DNA of 64,000 nucleotides from Escherichia phage Bp7. The number at the start of each line of letters is the position of its first letter. Position 1 is the first letter of the stretch. The notes beneath the pieces were generated by a model that was not told where the DNA came from, searched no databases, and was given only the letters and a program-made list of their open reading frames with translations. Location of the stretch: sequence record NC_019500.1, one strand, 5' to 3'. The translations under genes and the position numbers were made by a program. Positions 14,970 through 60,144 of the stretch are shown piece by piece.

Positions 14970-16393
14970 AAACTATTTTGGCTCAACTGCTAGGCAATAG
15001 TGATTATTTCACTAAGGTCTGGCCTTATATGAATGATTCTTATTTTGACCAGGGTCCTGCAAAGACCCTTTTCAAAGAAATTAAAAAACACGTCAATGAA
15101 TATAATGCAGTGCCTTCTAAGAACGCGCTGAGCATTGCATTAGATAACAGTACGCTTTCAGAAGTTGAACATCAAGGCGCTAAAGAGCTTTTAAGTTCAC
15201 TGAATGCCGGACCTGAAGACCAAGAATGGTTGGTTAAAGAGACGGAGAAATACGTTCAGAAAGCAGCGATGTATAATGCAACTTCAAAAATCATTGAAAT
15301 CCAAACTAATGCCGACCTTCCGGTTGAGCAACAAAATAGAAAACTTCCAGGTATTGGTGCTATTCCGGATATCATGCGTGATGCATTATCGATTTGTTTC
15401 GATTCTGAATTAGGTCATGACTGGATGGATGACTATGAAGAACGTTTCAAAAGTTATTCTGATAAAGCACGTAAGGTTCCGTTCCGTCTTAATATTCTGA
15501 ATAAGATTACCAAAGGTGGTGCCGAGTTTGGTACTGAAAACGTATTGTTGGCAGGAACAAACGTAGGTAAGTCTCTTGGTCTTTGTTCATTGGCTGCTGA
15601 TTATCTTCAATCTGGTTACGATGTTCTTTATATCTCCATGGAGATGGCAGAGGAAGTATGTGCTAAGCGTATCGATGCCAACCTTCTGGATGTATCACTG
15701 GATGATATCGATGATGGCCACGTCTCTTGGCCTGAATATAAAGCTAAGATGGATAAATGGCGTTCAACTGCTACTTTAGGTCGTTTAAAGATTAAACAGT
15801 ATCCTACTGGTGGTGCTAATGCCGATACATTCCGTGCATTATTAAACGAATACAAGCTCAAACAAAACTTTGTCCCTCAGGTTGTTATCGTCGACTACTT
15901 GGCTATCTGCGCATCGTCTCGTACGAAAGTTTTCTCTGAAAACAGTTACGGATTGATTAAGATGGTTGCTGAAGAACTACGTGGACTTGCAGTAGAGAAG
16001 AAATTATTGCTGTGGACAGCCGCCCAGACTACTCGTGGTGCAAACGTTGCAGCCGAAATCGATATGGCTGATATTGCTGAATCATTTGGTATTGCACATA
16101 CTGCAGACTTCATGTTGGGTGTGGTCGAGACAGAAGAGTTTGCTCAGATGGGTATGCAGATGGTTAAGCAGCTTAAATCTCGTTATGGTGATAAGAGCTA
16201 CTACAACAAATTTAAGATTGGTGTTAAGAAAGGAAATCAGCGTTGGTACGAAGTTGAAGATGATTCCAACCCGGGCCCAGTGAACACTGTTCGTGAGGCC
16301 ACAGGTGAGATGAATCGTCAAGCCGAGGTCAATCGACAGACGCGTGTTAATAGAAGTGATTTGGACGATTTAGCAGCATCTATCAAATTTTAA
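14954..16393 (+). CDS. 41: gp41 replicative DNA helicase (DnaB-like)
   Basis: 479 aa; LAGTNVGKSLGLCSLAADYL Walker A; co-linear with T4 gp41. Confidence 0.95.
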   Translation: MVEVVETILAQLLGNSDYFTKVWPYMNDSYFDQGPAKTLFKEIKKHVNEYNAVPSKNALSIALDNSTLSEVEHQGAKELLSSLNAGPEDQEWLVKETEKYVQKAAMYNATSKIIEIQTNADLPVEQQNRKLPGIGAIPDIMRDALSICFDSELGHDWMDDYEERFKSYSDKARKVPFRLNILNKITKGGAEFGTENVLLAGTNVGKSLGLCSLAADYLQSGYDVLYISMEMAEEVCAKRIDANLLDVSLDDIDDGHVSWPEYKAKMDKWRSTATLGRLKIKQYPTGGANADTFRALLNEYKLKQNFVPQVVIVDYLAICASSRTKVFSENSYGLIKMVAEELRGLAVEKKLLLWTAAQTTRGANVAAEIDMADIAESFGIAHTADFMLGVVETEEFAQMGMQMVKQLKSRYGDKSYYNKFKIGVKKGNQRWYEVEDDSNPGPVNTVREATGEMNRQAEVNRQTRVNRSDLDDLAASIKF

Positions 16394-16417
16394 GGAGCTT
16401 CGGCTCCTTTTTTGTTT
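16393..16417 (+). terminator. intrinsic terminator with UUCG tetraloop
   Basis: aggagcTTCGgctcc followed by tttttgtttt. Confidence 0.6.
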
Positions 16418-16422
16418 TAAGG

Positions 16423-16451
16423 GTTTACATCTCCTGTAGGCGTGATACTAT
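16423..16451 (+). promoter_or_regulatory. early promoter cassette
   Basis: gtttac, 17 bp, tgaTACTAT, tagacctatcaact. Confidence 0.5.
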
Positions 16452-17370: not shown

Positions 17371-17400
17371 GTTTACAACGGTCTATGGTAGTGATACTAT
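17371..17400 (+). promoter_or_regulatory. early promoter cassette
   Basis: gtttac, 18 bp, tgaTACTAT, ggacctatcaact, gaggag. Confidence 0.45.
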
Positions 17401-17428
17401 GGACCTATCAACTACCGAGGAGAACATT

Positions 17429-18364: not shown

Positions 18365-18526
18365 ATGAAATCTTTTAAAGAAGTTATGAACGAAGATATG
18401 GTCGCAGGCGATGCAGGTGGTAACCCATCTAATATTGCCTCCGGAACTACCTCAGGCGTGGTCGTCAACAAAGGGCCTGAACAAATCCCATCTAAAAAGC
18501 GTAAAGAAAAATCCGAAAACGAATGA
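18365..18526 (+). CDS. small hypothetical protein
   Basis: 53-aa ORF with ATG after an AGGAG RBS. Confidence 0.25.
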   Translation: MKSFKEVMNEDMVAGDAGGNPSNIASGTTSGVVVNKGPEQIPSKKRKEKSENE

Positions 18527-18564
18527 TATAATGGCTCTATTAATTTAGAGCCCAAGGAAAAATA

Positions 18565-19593
18565 ATGTCATATGTCGATAAAGAATTTGCTGTACGTGCC
18601 TTGAATTACCAACCTAAATTCAGACAAGTAACTGGTAGTGATTTTAAATTAAACTGTCGTTGTCGTGTATGCGGTGACTCTCAAAAAGATGAGAACAAAG
18701 CTCGTTTTTGGGCCTATCCGGCTAATGACGGCTCTGTAATGCTGCACTGTTTTAACTGTGACTATTCAGCAGGAATTAAGAAGTATCTATACGAATACGA
18801 GCCTGATTTATATCGCGAATATATTCTTGAGAAACATAAAGAGCAATCGTTCGGGAGACAAGCTGCACCTAAGGTGGAGATATCTGAAAAAATTAAAGCT
18901 AAGATGCCTGTCATCGAAAAGCTTAATTTCTGTGAACGATTAGATAGGATGCCGAAGGACCATCCTATTATCAAATATGTGACGTTACGTTGCATTCCTG
19001 AAAACAAATGGAACCGGCTGTGGTTTACTAAAGAATGGCCTGCATTAGTTAACTCTGTGAATCCAGGGACCTATTCTAAAGAAATGCCTGAGCCTCGTTT
19101 GGTTATTCCAATTTTCAATAAGAATAAACAAATTGAAAGTTTTCAGGGTCGAGCCTTACGTAAAGATGCTCCACAAAAATATATTACAATAAAAGCTCAC
19201 GACCAAGCTACAAAAATATATGGAATGGATACAGTTGACGAACGTCAGTTGGTGTGGGTAATGGAAGGCCCTATTGACTCTTTGTTTGTTCCGAATGCAA
19301 TAGCAATTACTGGCGGGTCGTTGGACTTGGCTATGGTTCCGTGCAAAGAAACTAGGGTTTGGGCCCTTGATAGCGAAAGCCGCCACCCAGATACTATTTC
19401 AAGAATGAAAAAGCTTATCGAGGCTGGTGAAAAAGTAGTGTTTTGGGATAAGGTCCCTTGGCCTTCTAAAGATATTAACGATATGATTAGAAAAGACGGG
19501 GCGTCGCCGGAAGCAATACTAGAATATATGAAAAGTAATTACAGTCAAGGATTAATGGCTAAATTGAGATTACAACGGTATGCTAAAATATGA
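18565..19593 (+). CDS. 61: gp61 DNA primase
   Basis: 342 aa; zinc ribbon CRCRVCGD...CFNC; FQGRALRKDAPQKYITI resembles T4 gp61. Confidence 0.9.
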   Translation: MSYVDKEFAVRALNYQPKFRQVTGSDFKLNCRCRVCGDSQKDENKARFWAYPANDGSVMLHCFNCDYSAGIKKYLYEYEPDLYREYILEKHKEQSFGRQAAPKVEISEKIKAKMPVIEKLNFCERLDRMPKDHPIIKYVTLRCIPENKWNRLWFTKEWPALVNSVNPGTYSKEMPEPRLVIPIFNKNKQIESFQGRALRKDAPQKYITIKAHDQATKIYGMDTVDERQLVWVMEGPIDSLFVPNAIAITGGSLDLAMVPCKETRVWALDSESRHPDTISRMKKLIEAGEKVVFWDKVPWPSKDINDMIRKDGASPEAILEYMKSNYSQGLMAKLRLQRYAKI

Positions 19594-20584: not shown

Positions 20585-20608
20585 TGCTTTACAAATTAAT
20601 GATATAAT
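20585..20608 (+). promoter_or_regulatory. MotA-dependent middle promoter
   Basis: TGCTTTA at 20585-20591, 11-bp spacer, TATAAT at 20603-20608; upstream of gene 56. Confidence 0.45.
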
Positions 20609-21167: not shown

Positions 21168-21170
21168 TCA

Positions 21171-21178
21171 GTATAAAT
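21171..21178 (+). promoter_or_regulatory. T4-type late promoter TATAAATA upstream of soc
   Basis: gTATAAATAc about 33 nt upstream of the soc ATG. Confidence 0.45.
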
Positions 21179-21210
21179 ACACCTGTAATTAAACAACAAA
21201 GGAGTTAATT

Positions 21211-21444
21211 ATGGGTGGTTTCGTTAATATCAAAACCTTTACGCATCCGGCTGGTGAAGGTAAAGAAGTTAAAGGTGTTGAAGTATCTGTTCCGTTTGAA
21301 ATCTATTCAAACGAGCATCGTATTGCGAATGCACACTATCAGACATTTCCTTCTGAAAAGGCGGCATACACTACTGTAGTAACTGATGCAGCCGATTGGC
21401 GAACTAAGAACGCGGCGATGTTTACGCCTACCCCAGTAGTTTAA
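21211..21444 (+). CDS. soc: Soc small outer capsid protein
   Basis: 77 aa; VNIKTF...AHYQTFPSEKAAYTTV resembles T4 Soc. Confidence 0.6.
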   Translation: MGGFVNIKTFTHPAGEGKEVKGVEVSVPFEIYSNEHRIANAHYQTFPSEKAAYTTVVTDAADWRTKNAAMFTPTPVV

Positions 21445-21449
21445 TTATA

Positions 21450-21477
21450 AGGAACCTTCGGGTTCCTTTTTTGGTTT
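21450..21477 (+). terminator. intrinsic terminator with UUCG tetraloop
   Basis: aggaaccTTCGggttcc followed by ttttttggtttt. Confidence 0.6.
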
Positions 21478-22426: not shown

Positions 22427-22901
22427 ACTAGAATTCTTTGTTCGTGATTCTGCCGGACAAACGCGACCTTATGATGCTACGGCGTGTCTTATCCTTGTCG
22501 ATAATGGTACGAATTCTATAACCCAGTTAGAAACACGATTAAAAGATATTAAGCTTCCAGAAAATATTATGATGAAGGCTTACCATAACAAAAATGTTGA
22601 TGTTGCTGAAGATTGTCCTTTTAGCCTGGCTGAAGCATTGCATATCAAGGGTTATCGCCATCCGGACCCGGATGGCGAAGGAACAATGGACATTTTCTAT
22701 AAAGATACCGATAGAATGTCCAACGAACGTCTTAAAGGTCGTACTTATCTTATTTCCGCTACCGAAGACCTTATTGAAGTTGAACGTCAGATTTGGAAGC
22801 ACTTTGATATTGGATTGCGCTTTACCATGACTGAAGACGCTATTCGTGATGCTAAGTTACGAGCTCGTATGTACGGTTATGGTCCTATCGGTGGTTACTA
22901 A
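22413..22901 (+). CDS. hypothetical protein
   Basis: 162-aa ORF. Confidence 0.35.
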
Positions 22902-23090: not shown

Positions 23091-23120
23091 GTTTTACACC
23101 TCCTCCCTTCATGTTATAAT
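23091..23120 (+). promoter_or_regulatory. early promoter with RBS-pairing inverted repeat
   Basis: ttttac, 17 bp, TATAAT; acctcc (23097-23102) is complementary to the ggaggt RBS (23137-23142). Confidence 0.4.
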
Positions 23121-23144
23121 GACCTCTAAATCACTGGAGGTCAT

Positions 23145-23714
23145 ATGAACATCGAACAAAAATGTCTTTATCAAGACCGAATCAATTCCAAATTCTCAAA
23201 ACACGAACAGAATCTTTTAGAAAAATGTCTGGATGCTAAAAAAGACCCTAACTTCCATTACGACCTTGACAAACTGGTTCGCAAGCATGTTACTTCAGCG
23301 GTTCCAGTAGAGTTGTATCGTGGGATTACCACCAGAGAACTTGAGCAATTAGAGCTCCTTTCAGTAGGGTGTCAATGGTCTCCTGGTCGAGTTACTTCTT
23401 TTAGTACACAATACTCTCAGGCTCGTCAGTTCGCAGGGGCGTGGGAATATGGAACCAAAACCATTTTAAGTCTCAGGAATGCACCGTTCATTTTCGACTA
23501 CTACAACCATGCTATAGACCTTGTTCTTGCAGGGAATGTAGACGCCCTTGAAATTGATGAAACTCGTATTGACCTCTATGATATGGTCGAAACTGAATGT
23601 GAGTTCATGGTCTCTAGCCAATCGCGATTTGAGATTGTTGCAATCGAAACCGTCAAAAGAGACCCGTATGAAATCGAGTACAAAACAATTCATTTAAAAA
23701 TGTTGGATTTTTAG
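23145..23714 (+). CDS. ADP-ribosyltransferase, ModA/ModB family (R-S-E type)
   Basis: LYRG, SFSTQ and ECEF motifs. Confidence 0.55.
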   Translation: MNIEQKCLYQDRINSKFSKHEQNLLEKCLDAKKDPNFHYDLDKLVRKHVTSAVPVELYRGITTRELEQLELLSVGCQWSPGRVTSFSTQYSQARQFAGAWEYGTKTILSLRNAPFIFDYYNHAIDLVLAGNVDALEIDETRIDLYDMVETECEFMVSSQSRFEIVAIETVKRDPYEIEYKTIHLKMLDF

Positions 23715-23743
23715 TTTACAAGCAAGGATGCTTGTGGTACTAT
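23714..23743 (+). promoter_or_regulatory. early promoter cassette
   Basis: gtttac, 18 bp, TACTAT, ctttctatcaact, gaggag. Confidence 0.4.
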
Positions 23744-24452: not shown

Positions 24453-24481
24453 GTTTACTTTACCGAGCAACATGATACTAT
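24453..24481 (+). promoter_or_regulatory. early promoter cassette
   Basis: gtttac, 17 bp, tgaTACTAT, tagacctatcagct. Confidence 0.45.
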
Positions 24482-27146: not shown

Positions 27147-27817
27147 AAGATATAATTATTGACTTCGAAACCTTTGCTACTACCCAAAATGCTGCGGTTA
27201 TCGACCTTGCAGTAATTGCTTACGACCCTAATCCAGAGGTTGTAGAAACGTTTGAAGAGCTTACTCAACGAGGCCTTCGTATTAAATTTGACCTCGCTTC
27301 TCAACGTGATAAACGTCTGTTTTCTAAAAGCACGTTGCAGTGGTGGAAAGAGCAAGGGCCTGAAGCACGTAAAAACCTGGCCCCATCCGAAATTGATGTG
27401 AGCACTTCTATCGGCCTTGGTAATTTCCTGGAATACTGCCGTAAAAACGAAGTGGACCAATGGAAATCACAGATGTGGTGTCGTGGAATGTCATTTGACT
27501 TTCCTATCTTAGTCGACCTTATTCGCGATGCTTATCGTTCTGAAGGTGTTCCTGAGAATGAAATTGATACCAGTAAATTAGAACCGGTTAAATTCTGGAA
27601 CCAACGTGATATCCGTACGGCCATCGAAGCATATTCATTGACTCGCGGATTGAGCATGTGTCCTCTGCCTAACGGAACATTGAGTGGGTTTGTAGCCCAT
27701 GACTCCATCCATGACTGTGCCAAGGATATCTTGATGCTGAAATATGCTCAACGTTATGCCTTGGGCCTGGAAGATGTCCCTGAGAATCCTGACCCGTTAA
27801 GTGTAAAAAATCGATAA
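27143..27817 (+). CDS. dexA: DexA exonuclease A
   Basis: 224 aa; IIDFETFATTQNAAVIDLAVIAYDPNPEVVETF is near-identical to T4 DexA. Confidence 0.85.
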   Translation: MKDIIIDFETFATTQNAAVIDLAVIAYDPNPEVVETFEELTQRGLRIKFDLASQRDKRLFSKSTLQWWKEQGPEARKNLAPSEIDVSTSIGLGNFLEYCRKNEVDQWKSQMWCRGMSFDFPILVDLIRDAYRSEGVPENEIDTSKLEPVKFWNQRDIRTAIEAYSLTRGLSMCPLPNGTLSGFVAHDSIHDCAKDILMLKYAQRYALGLEDVPENPDPLSVKNR

Positions 27818-27821
27818 AAGT

Positions 27822-27850
27822 GTTTACTTCTCCTCATGACATGATATTAT
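27822..27850 (+). promoter_or_regulatory. early promoter embedded in a 9-bp inverted repeat that includes the RBS
   Basis: gtttac, 17 bp, tattat; ctcctcatg (27830-27838) pairs with catgaggag (27863-27871). Confidence 0.45.
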
Positions 27851-27877
27851 CTACCCTATCAACATGAGGAGAACAAA

Positions 27878-28351
27878 ATGAAAATTTATCGAGTGGAGTC
27901 ATCGTTTAGTATCTTAGACAACAGCGATGTTATCACAATCACTCGTCATCAATGTCGCCAATTAACCCCGTATAGAGGCTCATTTGACGAATGGAGTGAA
28001 GGTTGGTTATTGGAAGTAGGTTTCGACAGACCTAATTTTAGACACCATCATACCAATAATAAAAATATTCCATTACCAAGTCAAGACGAATTGTTGGTTA
28101 AAAATTCTAATATGGTAATTAAAACCAAATTCGAACATGAAGATTATAAAGGTGTAGATAACTACATTCCAGGTTGGTTTGTCAATCTCTACCATTTTGC
28201 TTTTGCCAGCGAGTATGATATGATGCGCTGGTTCACTCGTGAAGAGCGTGCTGAATTATCTTCTAAAGGATTTTACCTTGCTGTTACGAAATACCTGAAG
28301 ATGAGTTGTCATTGGTGGCCGCCAAGTAAGGTTCCGCAAATCCCATGCTGA
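27878..28351 (+). CDS. hypothetical protein
   Basis: 157-aa ORF. Confidence 0.35.
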   Translation: MKIYRVESSFSILDNSDVITITRHQCRQLTPYRGSFDEWSEGWLLEVGFDRPNFRHHHTNNKNIPLPSQDELLVKNSNMVIKTKFEHEDYKGVDNYIPGWFVNLYHFAFASEYDMMRWFTREERAELSSKGFYLAVTKYLKMSCHWWPPSKVPQIPC

Positions 28352-28930: not shown

Positions 28931-28959
28931 GTTTACTTTATCGAGGGCCATGTTATAAT
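28931..28959 (+). promoter_or_regulatory. early promoter cassette
   Basis: gtttac, 17 bp, tgtTATAAT flanked by gagggccat / atggctctc. Confidence 0.45.
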
Positions 28960-29001
28960 GGCTCTCATGGAGAATAAACCTTTAACCAAGAGAGAAAAAT
29001 T

Positions 29002-30034: not shown

Positions 30035-30295
30035 ATGAAATATATTAATCGTTCTATTGCAGCTCTCGTATTAGCAGTTTCTTTGGTTGGATGTACTGAT
30101 GCCGATAATGCCACCCGTGTATTGGATGCAAATGGCTACGAACAAATCCAAATCACAGGATACAACCTATTTGGCTGCTCTGAAGATGATTTCCAACGTA
30201 CAGGCTTTATTGCTGTCGGTCCGACGGGTAAAAGGGTTGAAGGAACCGTTTGTTCTGGATTATTCTTTAAAAAGTCGACCATTCGATTTGATTAA
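30035..30295 (+). CDS. lipoprotein (lipobox LVGC)
   Basis: MKYINRSIAALVLAVSLVGCTD. Confidence 0.4.
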   Translation: MKYINRSIAALVLAVSLVGCTDADNATRVLDANGYEQIQITGYNLFGCSEDDFQRTGFIAVGPTGKRVEGTVCSGLFFKKSTIRFD

Positions 30296-30313
30296 GGGCT
30301 TCGGCCCTTTTCT
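30295..30313 (+). terminator. UUCG-tetraloop hairpin with a short U-run
   Basis: aagggcTTCGgccctttt. Confidence 0.45.
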
Positions 30314-38305: not shown

Positions 38306-38334
38306 GTATACATCTCCATTAATCATGATATTAT
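38306..38334 (+). promoter_or_regulatory. early promoter within a 10-bp inverted repeat that contains the RBS
   Basis: gtatac, 17 bp, tattat; atctccatta (38312-38321) pairs with taatggagat (38347-38356). Confidence 0.4.
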
Positions 38335-38360
38335 AGACCTATCAACTAATGGAGATGATT

Positions 38361-38471
38361 ATGAAAAACTTACTTAAAGCAATTTGGAACATGTTTGTGT
38401 TGTTAATGGTATTGAGCATTTTCCCAATCGTTTTTATGATTGACCATGTACGTGTATTCTTTAACTTCTGA
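38361..38471 (+). CDS. small hydrophobic membrane peptide (36 aa)
   Basis: MKNLLKAIWNMFVLLMVLSIFPIVFMIDH. Confidence 0.3.
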   Translation: MKNLLKAIWNMFVLLMVLSIFPIVFMIDHVRVFFNF

Positions 38472-39049: not shown

Positions 39050-39077
39050 TTTACAACCTCGAGAATCATGTTATAAT
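39049..39077 (+). promoter_or_regulatory. early promoter cassette
   Basis: gtttac, 17 bp, tgtTATAAT flanked by cgagaatcat / atggttctcg. Confidence 0.45.
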
Positions 39078-39126
39078 GGTTCTCGTTGACTGGATAACAA
39101 AACATTAATCTACTGAGGAAATTGAT

Positions 39127-41291: not shown

Positions 41292-41391
41292 GCCTTGGAG
41301 TCGAGTTCTTGTTACTCTGTATCTTTGCTGTTATCCTAGGCCTGGCGACAGGCTTAGCTATAGGTTTAATAGCAGCCAACTTTAAAAAGTA

Positions 41392-41417
41392 AGGAACCTT
41401 CGGGTTCCTTTTTTGGG
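41392..41417 (+). terminator. intrinsic terminator with UUCG tetraloop
   Basis: aggaaccTTCGggttcc followed by ttttttgggttt. Confidence 0.6.
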
Positions 41418-55199: not shown

Positions 55200-55228
55200 G
55201 TTTACTTCCTTAAAACCCATGATATAAT
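55200..55228 (+). promoter_or_regulatory. early promoter upstream of rnh
   Basis: gtttac, 17 bp, tgaTATAAT, ggacctctcaact. Confidence 0.45.
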
Positions 55229-55259
55229 GGACCTCTCAACTACTTGAACAGAGGTTCAT

Positions 55260-56207
55260 ATGAACGATTTAGATTTTTTACTTCCTGAAGAAGACCAACA
55301 AAAAGATGGATTTTTACTCCTAGATTTCAGCCAAATCATTATGGCGGCGGCTTTCCAAGAGTTTGGTGAGAATGCTGGATTTCCTAAAGTAACTACCGCA
55401 ATGCTTCGACACCTCGTGTTGAATTCAATTAAGAAAAACATTAAAGACTTCCGTAAACAAGGTTACAACCAATTAATTATTTGTGTTGATAACTCCAAAT
55501 CAGGTTATTGGCGTCGTCGTTATTCTTCTTATTATAAGAAAAACCGTGCTAAGGCTCGTGACGAATCACCATTTGATTGGGAAGGTTTATTCACAGCAAT
55601 GCATATTATTGTTGATGAACTGGAACAAAACATGCCTTATATTGTTATGAATATCGATACAATCGAAGCTGACGACCATATTGCTGTTTTAACCCGAATC
55701 CTTACGGCTTTAGGCCACCCTGTTATGATTGGTTCTTCTGATGGTGACTTTACCCAACTTCATAAATTCCCTGGTGTAAAACAATGGTCCCCAATGCAGA
55801 AAAAATTCGTCAAAACAAAATCTGGTGATGCATTGCTTGATTGCGTGACTAAGGTTGTTAAAGGTGACCGTAAAGATAACGTCGCGAGTATTAAAGTTCG
55901 TGGTGATTATTGGTTGACCATGGTTGAAGGCGAGCGTACTCCTAGCACTCGTGCCAAGGAACTTGAAGCAATTGCTCTTAATTATTATGACCATGATATA
56001 ATTAAAACACTTCTTACTGAAGAACAATATGAACGTTTCTGTGAAAACCAAATCTTAATTGATATGGACTTTATTCCGGATGATATTGTTGCTTTAATTA
56101 CTGAAAGATATAATACGTATAACAAACCTTCGAAATCTAAAGTTTATCCTTATTTCGTTAAATCGGGTTTGTCTAAACTAACCGCTACAGTAGCTGATTT
56201 TTATTAA
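55260..56207 (+). CDS. rnh: RNase H (FEN-1-like 5'-3' exonuclease)
   Basis: 315 aa; LLDFSQI..., CVDNSKSGYWRR, IGSSDGDFTQLHK resemble T4 RNase H. Confidence 0.85.
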   Translation: MNDLDFLLPEEDQQKDGFLLLDFSQIIMAAAFQEFGENAGFPKVTTAMLRHLVLNSIKKNIKDFRKQGYNQLIICVDNSKSGYWRRRYSSYYKKNRAKARDESPFDWEGLFTAMHIIVDELEQNMPYIVMNIDTIEADDHIAVLTRILTALGHPVMIGSSDGDFTQLHKFPGVKQWSPMQKKFVKTKSGDALLDCVTKVVKGDRKDNVASIKVRGDYWLTMVEGERTPSTRAKELEAIALNYYDHDIIKTLLTEEQYERFCENQILIDMDFIPDDIVALITERYNTYNKPSKSKVYPYFVKSGLSKLTATVADFY

Positions 56208-59077: not shown

Positions 59078-59104
59078 TGGGAAGACTTCGGTCTTCCCTT
59101 TTTG
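59078..59104 (+). terminator. intrinsic terminator with UUCG tetraloop after gene 32
   Basis: gggaagacTTCGgtcttccc followed by tttttgg. Confidence 0.6.
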
Positions 59105-60089: not shown

Positions 60090-60119
60090 GTTTACACCAG
60101 GCTATGGTAGTGATACTAT
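60090..60119 (+). promoter_or_regulatory. early promoter cassette
   Basis: gtttac, 18 bp, tgaTACTAT flanked by aggctat / atagcct. Confidence 0.45.
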
Positions 60120-60144
60120 AGCCTTATCAACTAAGGAGAATAAA

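Follow-up and report, generated by a model that had tools for sequence, protein, structure and literature searches.

Three early genes of Escherichia phage Bp7, motB.2, ndd.4 and modB, each appear to have a sigma70-type early promoter embedded in an RNA hairpin, the 3' arm of which would be the translation initiation region (TIR) of the next gene. We consider it probable that this arrangement makes translation promoter-selective, with the ribosome binding site (RBS) hidden in RNA that reads through from upstream and free in RNA that starts at the embedded early promoter. Fold predictions, chimera controls and covariation across lineages agree with the original prediction that read-through RNA occludes the RBS, while the consequence for translation is one that we infer.

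Genomic context

The window (64,000 nucleotides of the phage genome, NC_019500.1) is about 94% identical to coliphages of the JS98/IME08 group and belongs to the genus Dhakavirus in the family Straboviridae, making the phage a relative of T4. A T4-type early region occupies the + strand from position 1 to about 44000, where the gene order is uvsX ... 61 ... soc ... modB, modA, srd, dda and dexA, followed by motB.2, motB.1, motB, cef, goF, 39, rIIA, rIIB and the ndd cluster. The hairpin sites stand before motB.2 (site 1), ndd.4 (site 2) and modB (site 3), and the coordinates of their parts are collected in Table 1. When the whole window was compared with Rfam, there were no matches at the gathering score. 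Upstream of modB, within coding sequence of the modA.3 region, two perfect 11-nt arms form a palindrome around a 2-nt centre (tcgccatccgg cc ccggatggcga, 22655-22678).

Among the products of the three genes, toxicity to the host and attachment of RNA chains to host proteins have been reported for ModB. T4 proteomics places ModB among the early proteins (PMC9697503).

Table 1. Positions of the genes, hairpin elements, early promoters and terminator-like hairpins in the window
Feature	Position	Strand	Remarks
motB.2 homolog	27878..28351	+	157 aa; phrog_1106; starts directly after the dexA stop at 27817
Site 1, -35 element GTTTACT	27822..27828	+	early promoter before motB.2; position weight matrix and consensus scan
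Site 1, 5' arm ttctcctcatg	27828..27838	+	in promoter spacer; 11-nt perfect inverted repeat and fold
Site 1, -10 TATTAT with TG extension	27845..27850	+	in hairpin loop; predicted start site ~27857-27858
Site 1, 3' arm catgaggagaa	27863..27873	+	holds Shine–Dalgarno GAGGAG/GGAG
ndd.4 homolog	38361..38471	+	36-aa hydrophobic membrane protein; phrog_3098; start likely
Site 2, -35 element TATACA	38307..38312	+	
Site 2, 5' arm catctccatta	38311..38321	+	in promoter spacer
Site 2, -10 TATTAT	38329..38334	+	in loop; predicted start site 38341
Site 2, 3' arm taatggagatg	38347..38357	+	holds Shine–Dalgarno GGAG
modB	23145..23714	+	ADP-ribosyltransferase; phrog_832
Site 3, -35 element TTTACA	23093..23098	+	modB early promoter
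Site 3, acctcc	23098..23103	+	originally predicted 5' arm, in spacer; weaker alternative anti-Shine–Dalgarno partner; absent from MFE structure
Site 3, -10 TATAAT	23115..23120	+	last two bases within the 5' arm
Site 3, preferred 5' arm atgacctc + ta	23119..23128	+	spans -10 end and discriminator; predicted start site ~23127-23129
Site 3, 3' arm tg + gaggtcat	23135..23144	+	Shine–Dalgarno and the whole spacer up to the AUG
Early-promoter cassettes	16424, 17373, 23093, 23715, 24454, 27823, 28932, 37893, 38307, 39050, 41434, 41758, 44135, 55201, 59116, 59802, 60092	+	
UUCG terminator-like hairpins	16392-16409, 21449-21468, 30294-30309, 41391-41410, ~59080-59100		

Early-promoter cassettes

Using a position weight matrix built from the obvious cases, we located 16 early-promoter cassettes on the + strand, and a consensus scan added the modA promoter at 23715, which brings the number to about 17. 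These cassettes are T4-type sigma70 early promoters (GTTTAC-N17-TAnnAT). They share an A/T-rich tract, GTTTAC, a 17-nt spacer that often begins with tctcc or tctgc, then CATGA, TAcTAT, agacc and TATCAAC, and finally a leader ending in GGAGAAcAAAATG. The consensus is unusually long, since it continues beyond the -10 and takes in part of the leader (GTTTAC-N17-TAcTAT-agaccTATCAAC...GGAGAAcAAAATG), and the cassettes look like paralogous modules of promoter, leader and Shine–Dalgarno sequence (SD) of the promoter-early stem-loop (PeSL) kind discussed below.

Transcription start sites are predicted and were placed by sigma70 spacing, with the A of TATCAAC as +1. All three hairpin sites match the phage's own early-promoter consensus strongly, and each has its 5' arm ahead of the predicted +1.

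Five cassettes have local hairpins that surround or abut the -10 and stay clear of the RBS (17382-17408, 60101-60127, 28945-28968, 39061-39086 and 23718-23738), with arms such as ggtctatggta/tactatggacc and gagggccat/atggctctc; in the modA promoter the stem lies within the spacer (acaagca/tgcttgt). None of these five local hairpins is followed by a T-run.

Structure of the three hairpins

At sites 1 and 2 the perfect inverted repeats are found exactly where the original prediction had placed them, and in both cases the perfect arms extend to 11 nt (at site 1, beyond the ctcctcatg/catgaggag first described). Because the 5' arm of site 1 lies in the promoter spacer, it is predicted to be missing from promoter-proximal RNA. 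The -10 had been expected to lie in the hairpin loop, which is true of these two sites but not of site 3, where the end of the -10 belongs to the 5' arm.

Site 3 requires further correction. The repeat that had been described there exists, but each of its halves is off by one position (ggaggt is at 23136-23141), and acctcc is not the favoured partner of the RBS. The thermodynamically preferred 5' arm is atgacctc (23119-23126), located after the -10 and before the start site. It pairs with gaggtcat (23137-23144) directly before the ATG; the stem comes to 10 bp when the G·U and the A-U pair are counted.

Folding and specificity within the window

The energy required to open the region from -15 to +3 is predicted to be 3.5, 1.9 and 3.3 kcal/mol in the promoter-proximal RNAs of motB.2, ndd.4 and modB, respectively, and 19.4, 15.4 and 17.8 kcal/mol in read-through RNAs with 60 nt of upstream sequence, a picture that is unchanged with 120 or 200 nt. 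The comparison of folds that had been suggested as a check of the prediction came out in its favour, the stretch from SD to AUG being predicted to be buried in read-through RNA only (15-19 vs 2-3.5 kcal/mol). Compared with dinucleotide shuffles, the read-through segments fold better (z of -2.5, -4.6 and -3.9 for motB.2, ndd.4 and modB) and the promoter-proximal leaders fold worse (z of +1.4, +0.5 and +1.7).

Since many spacers carry tctcc and most RBSs contain GGAG, we joined each promoter half to each leader in a 16x16 chimera matrix. The native combinations of motB.2, ndd.4 and modB gave 18.0, 15.9 and 17.8 kcal/mol, and the best foreign promoter reached 10.2, 9.5 and 9.5 kcal/mol; in the other 13 cassettes, the native promoter half ranks anywhere from 3rd to 15th of 16. 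Among 99 window genes, which were called heuristically, motB.2 and modB are first and second for occlusion in the long transcript (19.5 and 17.1; median 5.2, 95th percentile 12.0), and soc was recovered as a positive control (10.4 in long context, 3.0 in short).

The design had been described as apparently used systematically, and this did not hold up. Site-specific occlusion is confined to three of the 16-17 early cassettes; among the 99 called genes, those behind the remaining cassettes behave like ordinary genes and do not differ from genes without a cassette (Mann-Whitney p=0.41). Moreover, perfect inverted repeats of at least 9 nt are not enriched over the whole window (13 found; 10.9 +/- 3.4 expected), so that the three repeats are unremarkable by themselves and the signal is their position, not their number. 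What is above chance is the placement, with the SD in the 3' arm and the 5' arm ahead of where transcription is predicted to start, the site-specificity, and the conservation with covariation.

The rnh cassette (55201) was considered as a fourth member and rejected, as its pairing is non-specific (rank 5 of 16 in the chimeras); it is also divergent from gene 34 and so has no co-directional upstream gene. Its sequence (55201-55262) contains a modB-like atggacctc/gaggttcat repeat of 9 bp with one G·U, in which the discriminator pairs with the SD.

A separate case is the primase gene 61 (start 18565), for which opening the TIR is predicted to take 12.8 kcal/mol in long context and 2.5 in short. 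Here an upstream TGATATAAT-like box pairs with the AUG region and the hairpin ggctcta/tagagcc lies in between; no clear -35 or MotA box is seen in the region from 18520 to 18575.

Conservation in related phages

All three hairpins (motB.2, modB and ndd.4) are present in T4, with arm sequences that differ from those of the window. The T4 arms are tcctcggt(t)agttgtgg / ccatagctactgagga at motB.2, with the -10 TACTAT in the loop; gatagcttc / ggaggctatc at modB; and ctgttcttccgtggt, in the spacer, / actatggaggaacag at ndd.4 (15 bp, of which 3 are G·U). A ranking of the 46 genes in the first 30 kb of T4 again puts motB.2 and modB first and second. Since T4 shows hairpins at the same three genes, the design is not peculiar to the window phage.

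For a wider comparison we used the modB upstream regions of 13 lineages (11 named genera and two phages without genus assignment), the genera being sampled one by one from a phage collection; a search with the MotB.2 protein gave only 11 loci. The modB hairpin is found in 12 of the 13 lineages, namely Dhakavirus, Tequatrovirus, Mosigvirus, Gelderlandvirus, Gaprivervirus, Karamvirus, Winklervirus, Kanagawavirus, Jiaodavirus, Tegunavirus, a Citrobacter phage and a Klebsiella phage. In these, the SD, the spacer and usually the AUG lie within a stem of 14-19 bp, and their partner is the end of the -10 together with the discriminator, the hexamer TATGAT pairing with AUCAUG. With this degree of conservation, the modB hairpin should be testable directly in T4.

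Across the 12 lineages, each stem position is occupied by two to six types of pair. An unfitted MAFFT alignment of the leaders has 85% of its cells paired, vs 32-55% in slid controls; six pairs change on both sides, a U·G is present at one position in 11 of the 12 sequences, and the covariation score was attained by none of 500 shuffles. This alignment mis-registers four sequences, and we therefore added chimera tests that are free of alignment. Chimeras between lineages average 10.3 kcal/mol vs 16.6 for the native combinations (the 3' half alone gives 1.8-7.6), and the native partner ranks first in 7 of 12 (permutation p ~5e-6).

The thirteenth lineage, Krischvirus, deviates in having a terminator-like modB hairpin with a T-run, the 3' arm of which is the SD. 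Upstream of modB in Krischvirus ECD7 (L023:650-700), the hairpin between -10 and TIR is replaced by a stem gcctcc...ggaggc, after which TTTTTTATT leads straight into the ATG.

At ndd.4, a 14-bp stem persists in Gaprivervirus, the arms of which differ from those of the window and show a T-A to G-C swap; the Kanagawavirus hairpin is weak. In motB.2, the two substitutions seen within the T4 lineage preserve the pairing, one turning C-G into U·G and the other G·U into A-U.

In the window, the likely start of ndd.4 is 38361 rather than 38349, the start of the ORF. The annotated ndd.4 start of T4, ATGGAGGAACAGAAAATG, contains the SD, and the second ATG is the likely start, so that the annotation is probably wrong. 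The ModB of Citrobacter phage Ursula (L018:632) is probably misannotated as well, its annotated start lying inside the -10 (TGATATGAT) with the real start 30 nt downstream. We flag the ATG-like -10 region as a cause of such start-codon misannotations.

Transcription from upstream and alternative explanations

The early promoters at 24454 and 37893 should feed motB.2 and ndd.4, respectively. MotA-box-like matches on the + strand at 20585, 22305 and 35717 (TGCTT with a correctly spaced -10), which are pattern matches only, are candidate middle promoters whose transcripts would cross modB and the rIIB/ndd region. A terminator scan found no terminator between the three sites and the co-directional genes that precede them.

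Elsewhere in the window, UUCG-tetraloop hairpins with a T-run form clear terminators at 21449 and 30294 and just ahead of the promoters at 16424, 41434 and 59116. The three that stand immediately 5' of early promoters make up terminator-promoter modules. The idea that the hairpins of the three sites take the place of upstream terminators proved only partly true, as about eight cassettes without a hairpin are also without a terminator.

One alternative is that the hairpins are attenuators of the PeSL type, that is, stem-loops of a mobile cassette that stop or reduce transcription from upstream and overlap the RBS merely as a by-product of the very short leader. In early promoters of RB49 and phi1, stem-loops overlap the -10 or lie between it and the -35; one of them lowered lacZ expression as a strong terminator would, and PeSL-like sequences are mentioned for JS98 (Arbiol et al. 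2010, PMC2839356). The five local hairpins around the -10 in other cassettes of the window, and the T-run behind the modB hairpin of Krischvirus ECD7, also speak for such a role. We nevertheless regard it as unlikely. None of the three hairpins has a T-run or appears in the terminator scan, and those of sites 1 and 2 differ from intrinsic terminators in their 24-25 nt loops as well; such loops bring the stem to the SD, even though a local hairpin clear of the RBS would be feasible, as the cassettes at 17373, 28932, 39050 and 60092 show. In the 12 modB lineages the 3' arm always covers the SD and spacer, and usually the AUG. Furthermore, the phage's terminators elsewhere are of the UUCG type and lie upstream of the -35.

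Protection of the RNA is similarly unlikely as the main function. On this account, the hairpin mainly hides the GGAG of the SD from RegB (or RNase E/G) in long polycistronic RNA, which would stay whole for the downstream genes, with any control of translation being secondary. RegB needs a single-stranded GGAG and is inhibited by structure; Durand et al. (2006) reported RegB cleavage at the SDs of T4 motB.2 and modB in vivo, and resistance of modB RNA in vitro, apparently through a stable structure (PMC1702504). The window leaders match the RegB consensus GGAGAAnAAAA, yet most cassettes with an identical GGAGAAcAAAA leader have no such shield, and pairing of the AUG and of the spacer before it is left unexplained. 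In any case, a shield against RegB is compatible with promoter-selective translation and does not replace it.

The sequence comparisons make an element that acts at the level of DNA, such as a cruciform, a palindrome whose bound protein controls the promoter, or a hotspot where recombination shuffles cassettes, very improbable. It is true that PeSLs have been proposed as recombination sites (PMC2839356) and that the repeats bracket or overlap the -10, but the arms are wholly different between sites and genera while the pairing persists, and hence there is no common binding motif. Many of the pairs are G·U, which in DNA would not match and would read A·C in the opposite strand. Folding is better in the sense than in the antisense strand for 15 of 18 orthologous hairpins (mean 5.2 kcal/mol, p = 5e-4), which, given the G·U pairs, argues for selection on RNA of mRNA sense and not on DNA. 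Finally, an accidental meeting of C/U-rich spacers and GGAG-type RBSs, suggested by the frequency of tctcc after the -35, the unremarkable window-wide count of inverted repeats and the ~5 kcal/mol of generic promoter/leader chimeras, is rejected by the covariation across the 12 modB lineages and T4, and runs against the two 11-nt perfect arms in about 1 kb of cassette sequence and the 6-8 kcal/mol by which native pairs top every chimera.

Proposed mechanism

We thus return to promoter-selective translation as the preferred explanation. Transcripts that begin upstream would come from the srd/dda/dexA promoter at 24454 in the case of motB.2, from 37893 in the case of ndd.4, and from RNA running through modA.2 in the case of modB. 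In such RNA, the two arms would fold as soon as the 3' arm is synthesised, burying the SD and, at modB, also the spacer and in most lineages the AUG, so that modB, motB.2 and ndd.4 would be poorly translated from it. RNA from the embedded promoter would start downstream of the 5' arm and carry an unstructured leader that can be translated. From this fold it follows that synthesis of ModB, MotB.2 and Ndd.4 would be tied to each gene's own immediate-early promoter and insulated from delayed-early and middle read-through. Because RegB needs a single-stranded GGAG, only the promoter-proximal mRNA would be open to it, and this mRNA may later be cut by RegB.

The analysis itself shows the repeats, the predicted folds with their energies, the site-specificity and the conserved, covarying pairing on the sense strand; where transcription starts, whether and in what amount read-through RNA exists, how strongly translation is affected and what biological purpose this serves are what we infer. 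Several points should be weighed against promoter-selective translation. The loops of sites 1 and 2 are long, ribosomes that finish at the dexA stop come as close as about 11 nt to the stem of site 1, and 13-14 other early cassettes do without such a hairpin. The benefit of silencing read-through RNA is not obvious when a gene's own promoter and the upstream early promoters fire together. Durand et al. suggest that RegB cleaves nascent modB RNA before it folds (PMC1702504), and cleavage before folding would give ribosomes a kinetic window too. On our reading, the cleavage of modB RNA in vivo and its resistance in vitro fit a model that has promoter-proximal RNA as the sole unfolded form in vivo.

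A broader proposal, which we hold to be less likely than not, can be put forward tentatively. It is that these sites are conserved "immediate-early-only" gates across the sampled Straboviridae, in which the sigma70 promoter doubles as an anti-RBS, either through its spacer or through a -10 TATGAT that pairs with AUCAUG. Shut-off of the early promoters would then end the synthesis of toxic takeover proteins of the ModB type despite persisting read-through RNA and, together with RegB, would form a two-step off-switch. If true, this would explain why T4 modB RNA resists RegB in vitro and is nonetheless cut in vivo.

The end of early protein synthesis in T4-type phages is understood only in part; RegB provides some of the explanation, and the shut-off of early promoters still lacks one (PMC3014915, PMC2988021). 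If translation hinges on a gene's own early promoter through such a hairpin, this would add a simple cis-acting layer to the control of early shut-off, including that of modB.

Comparison with known systems

The original prediction equated the design with a mechanism known for a few T4 genes, and this has to be qualified. A sequestered RBS that is relieved by an internal late promoter has been described for e, soc, 49, I-TevI/II/III, segB, mobE (Aeh1) and 25/26 (PMC3014915, PMC2988022), and all the genes regulated by a hairpin and an internal promoter are late genes (PMC2988022). The likeness is that the SD or AUG lies in a stem of upstream-initiated RNA and that RNA from the gene's own promoter is without the 5' arm, which is predicted for the sites described here. 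The difference is that the T4 gates have gp55-dependent late promoters (TATAAATA), whereas the promoters here are sigma70-type early promoters and the genes are early. For this reason, the gates of the three sites would confine translation to the immediate-early burst, where the late gates delay it. A further difference from the T4 late-gene gates is that the -10 hexamer of modB is itself part of the arm that pairs with the TIR.

The window contains the late type as well. At soc (21170-21225), the late-promoter motif TATAAATA stands directly before a hairpin, acctgtaattaa/ttaattATGggt, that pairs the spacer and AUG, which is the classical T4 late-gene design.

In the accessible literature, we did not find such a gate in sigma70 early promoters of early genes, nor a -10 hexamer acting as the partner of the AUG, as in modB of 12 lineages; older descriptions of either are possible, for the former for example in Liebig & Rüger 1989. 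The logic of a promoter within a hairpin is known from T4 late genes and IS10, and the early sigma70 version with its reversed temporal meaning is new in so far as it was not found in that literature.

The 3' arms resemble RegB target sites in having GGAG followed by an A-rich tract. RegB sites differ from the hairpin sites in being defined by sequence and single-strandedness, and the hairpin would confine RegB to promoter-proximal RNA.

With the PeSL cassettes of RB49 and phi1, the sites share a strong sigma70-like early promoter, an A/T-rich upstream tract, an SD and ATG on the 3' side, and many copies in the early region (PMC2839356). A stem-loop in the promoter is also common to both, its 5' arm lying here in the spacer (sites 1 and 2) or overlapping the -10 (site 3). 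PeSL stems are local, often pair a G-tract with a C-tract, and have been read as terminators or attenuators and as recombination sites; the word "translation" is absent from the main text of that paper (PMC2839356). Unlike PeSLs, the hairpins described here have the RBS as their 3' arm, have no T-run, and have arms that covary with the RBS. This suggests that some PeSL stem-loops, so far taken as terminators, may act on translation.

A parallel outside the phages is fold-back inhibition of IS10/Tn10 against external promoters, the reference for which (Davis, Simons & Kleckner 1985, Cell 43:379) is given in PMC13181058. In IS10, a sigma70 promoter reportedly lies inside a hairpin, and only transcripts from this promoter have a free RBS, read-through from outside being translationally silent. 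The likeness is that of a promoter within an RBS-blocking hairpin. The IS10 gene, by contrast, is the transposase of an insertion sequence without any sequence relationship to the phage sites, and its hairpin insulates it from host transcription, whereas that of the phage would serve the timing of the phage programme.
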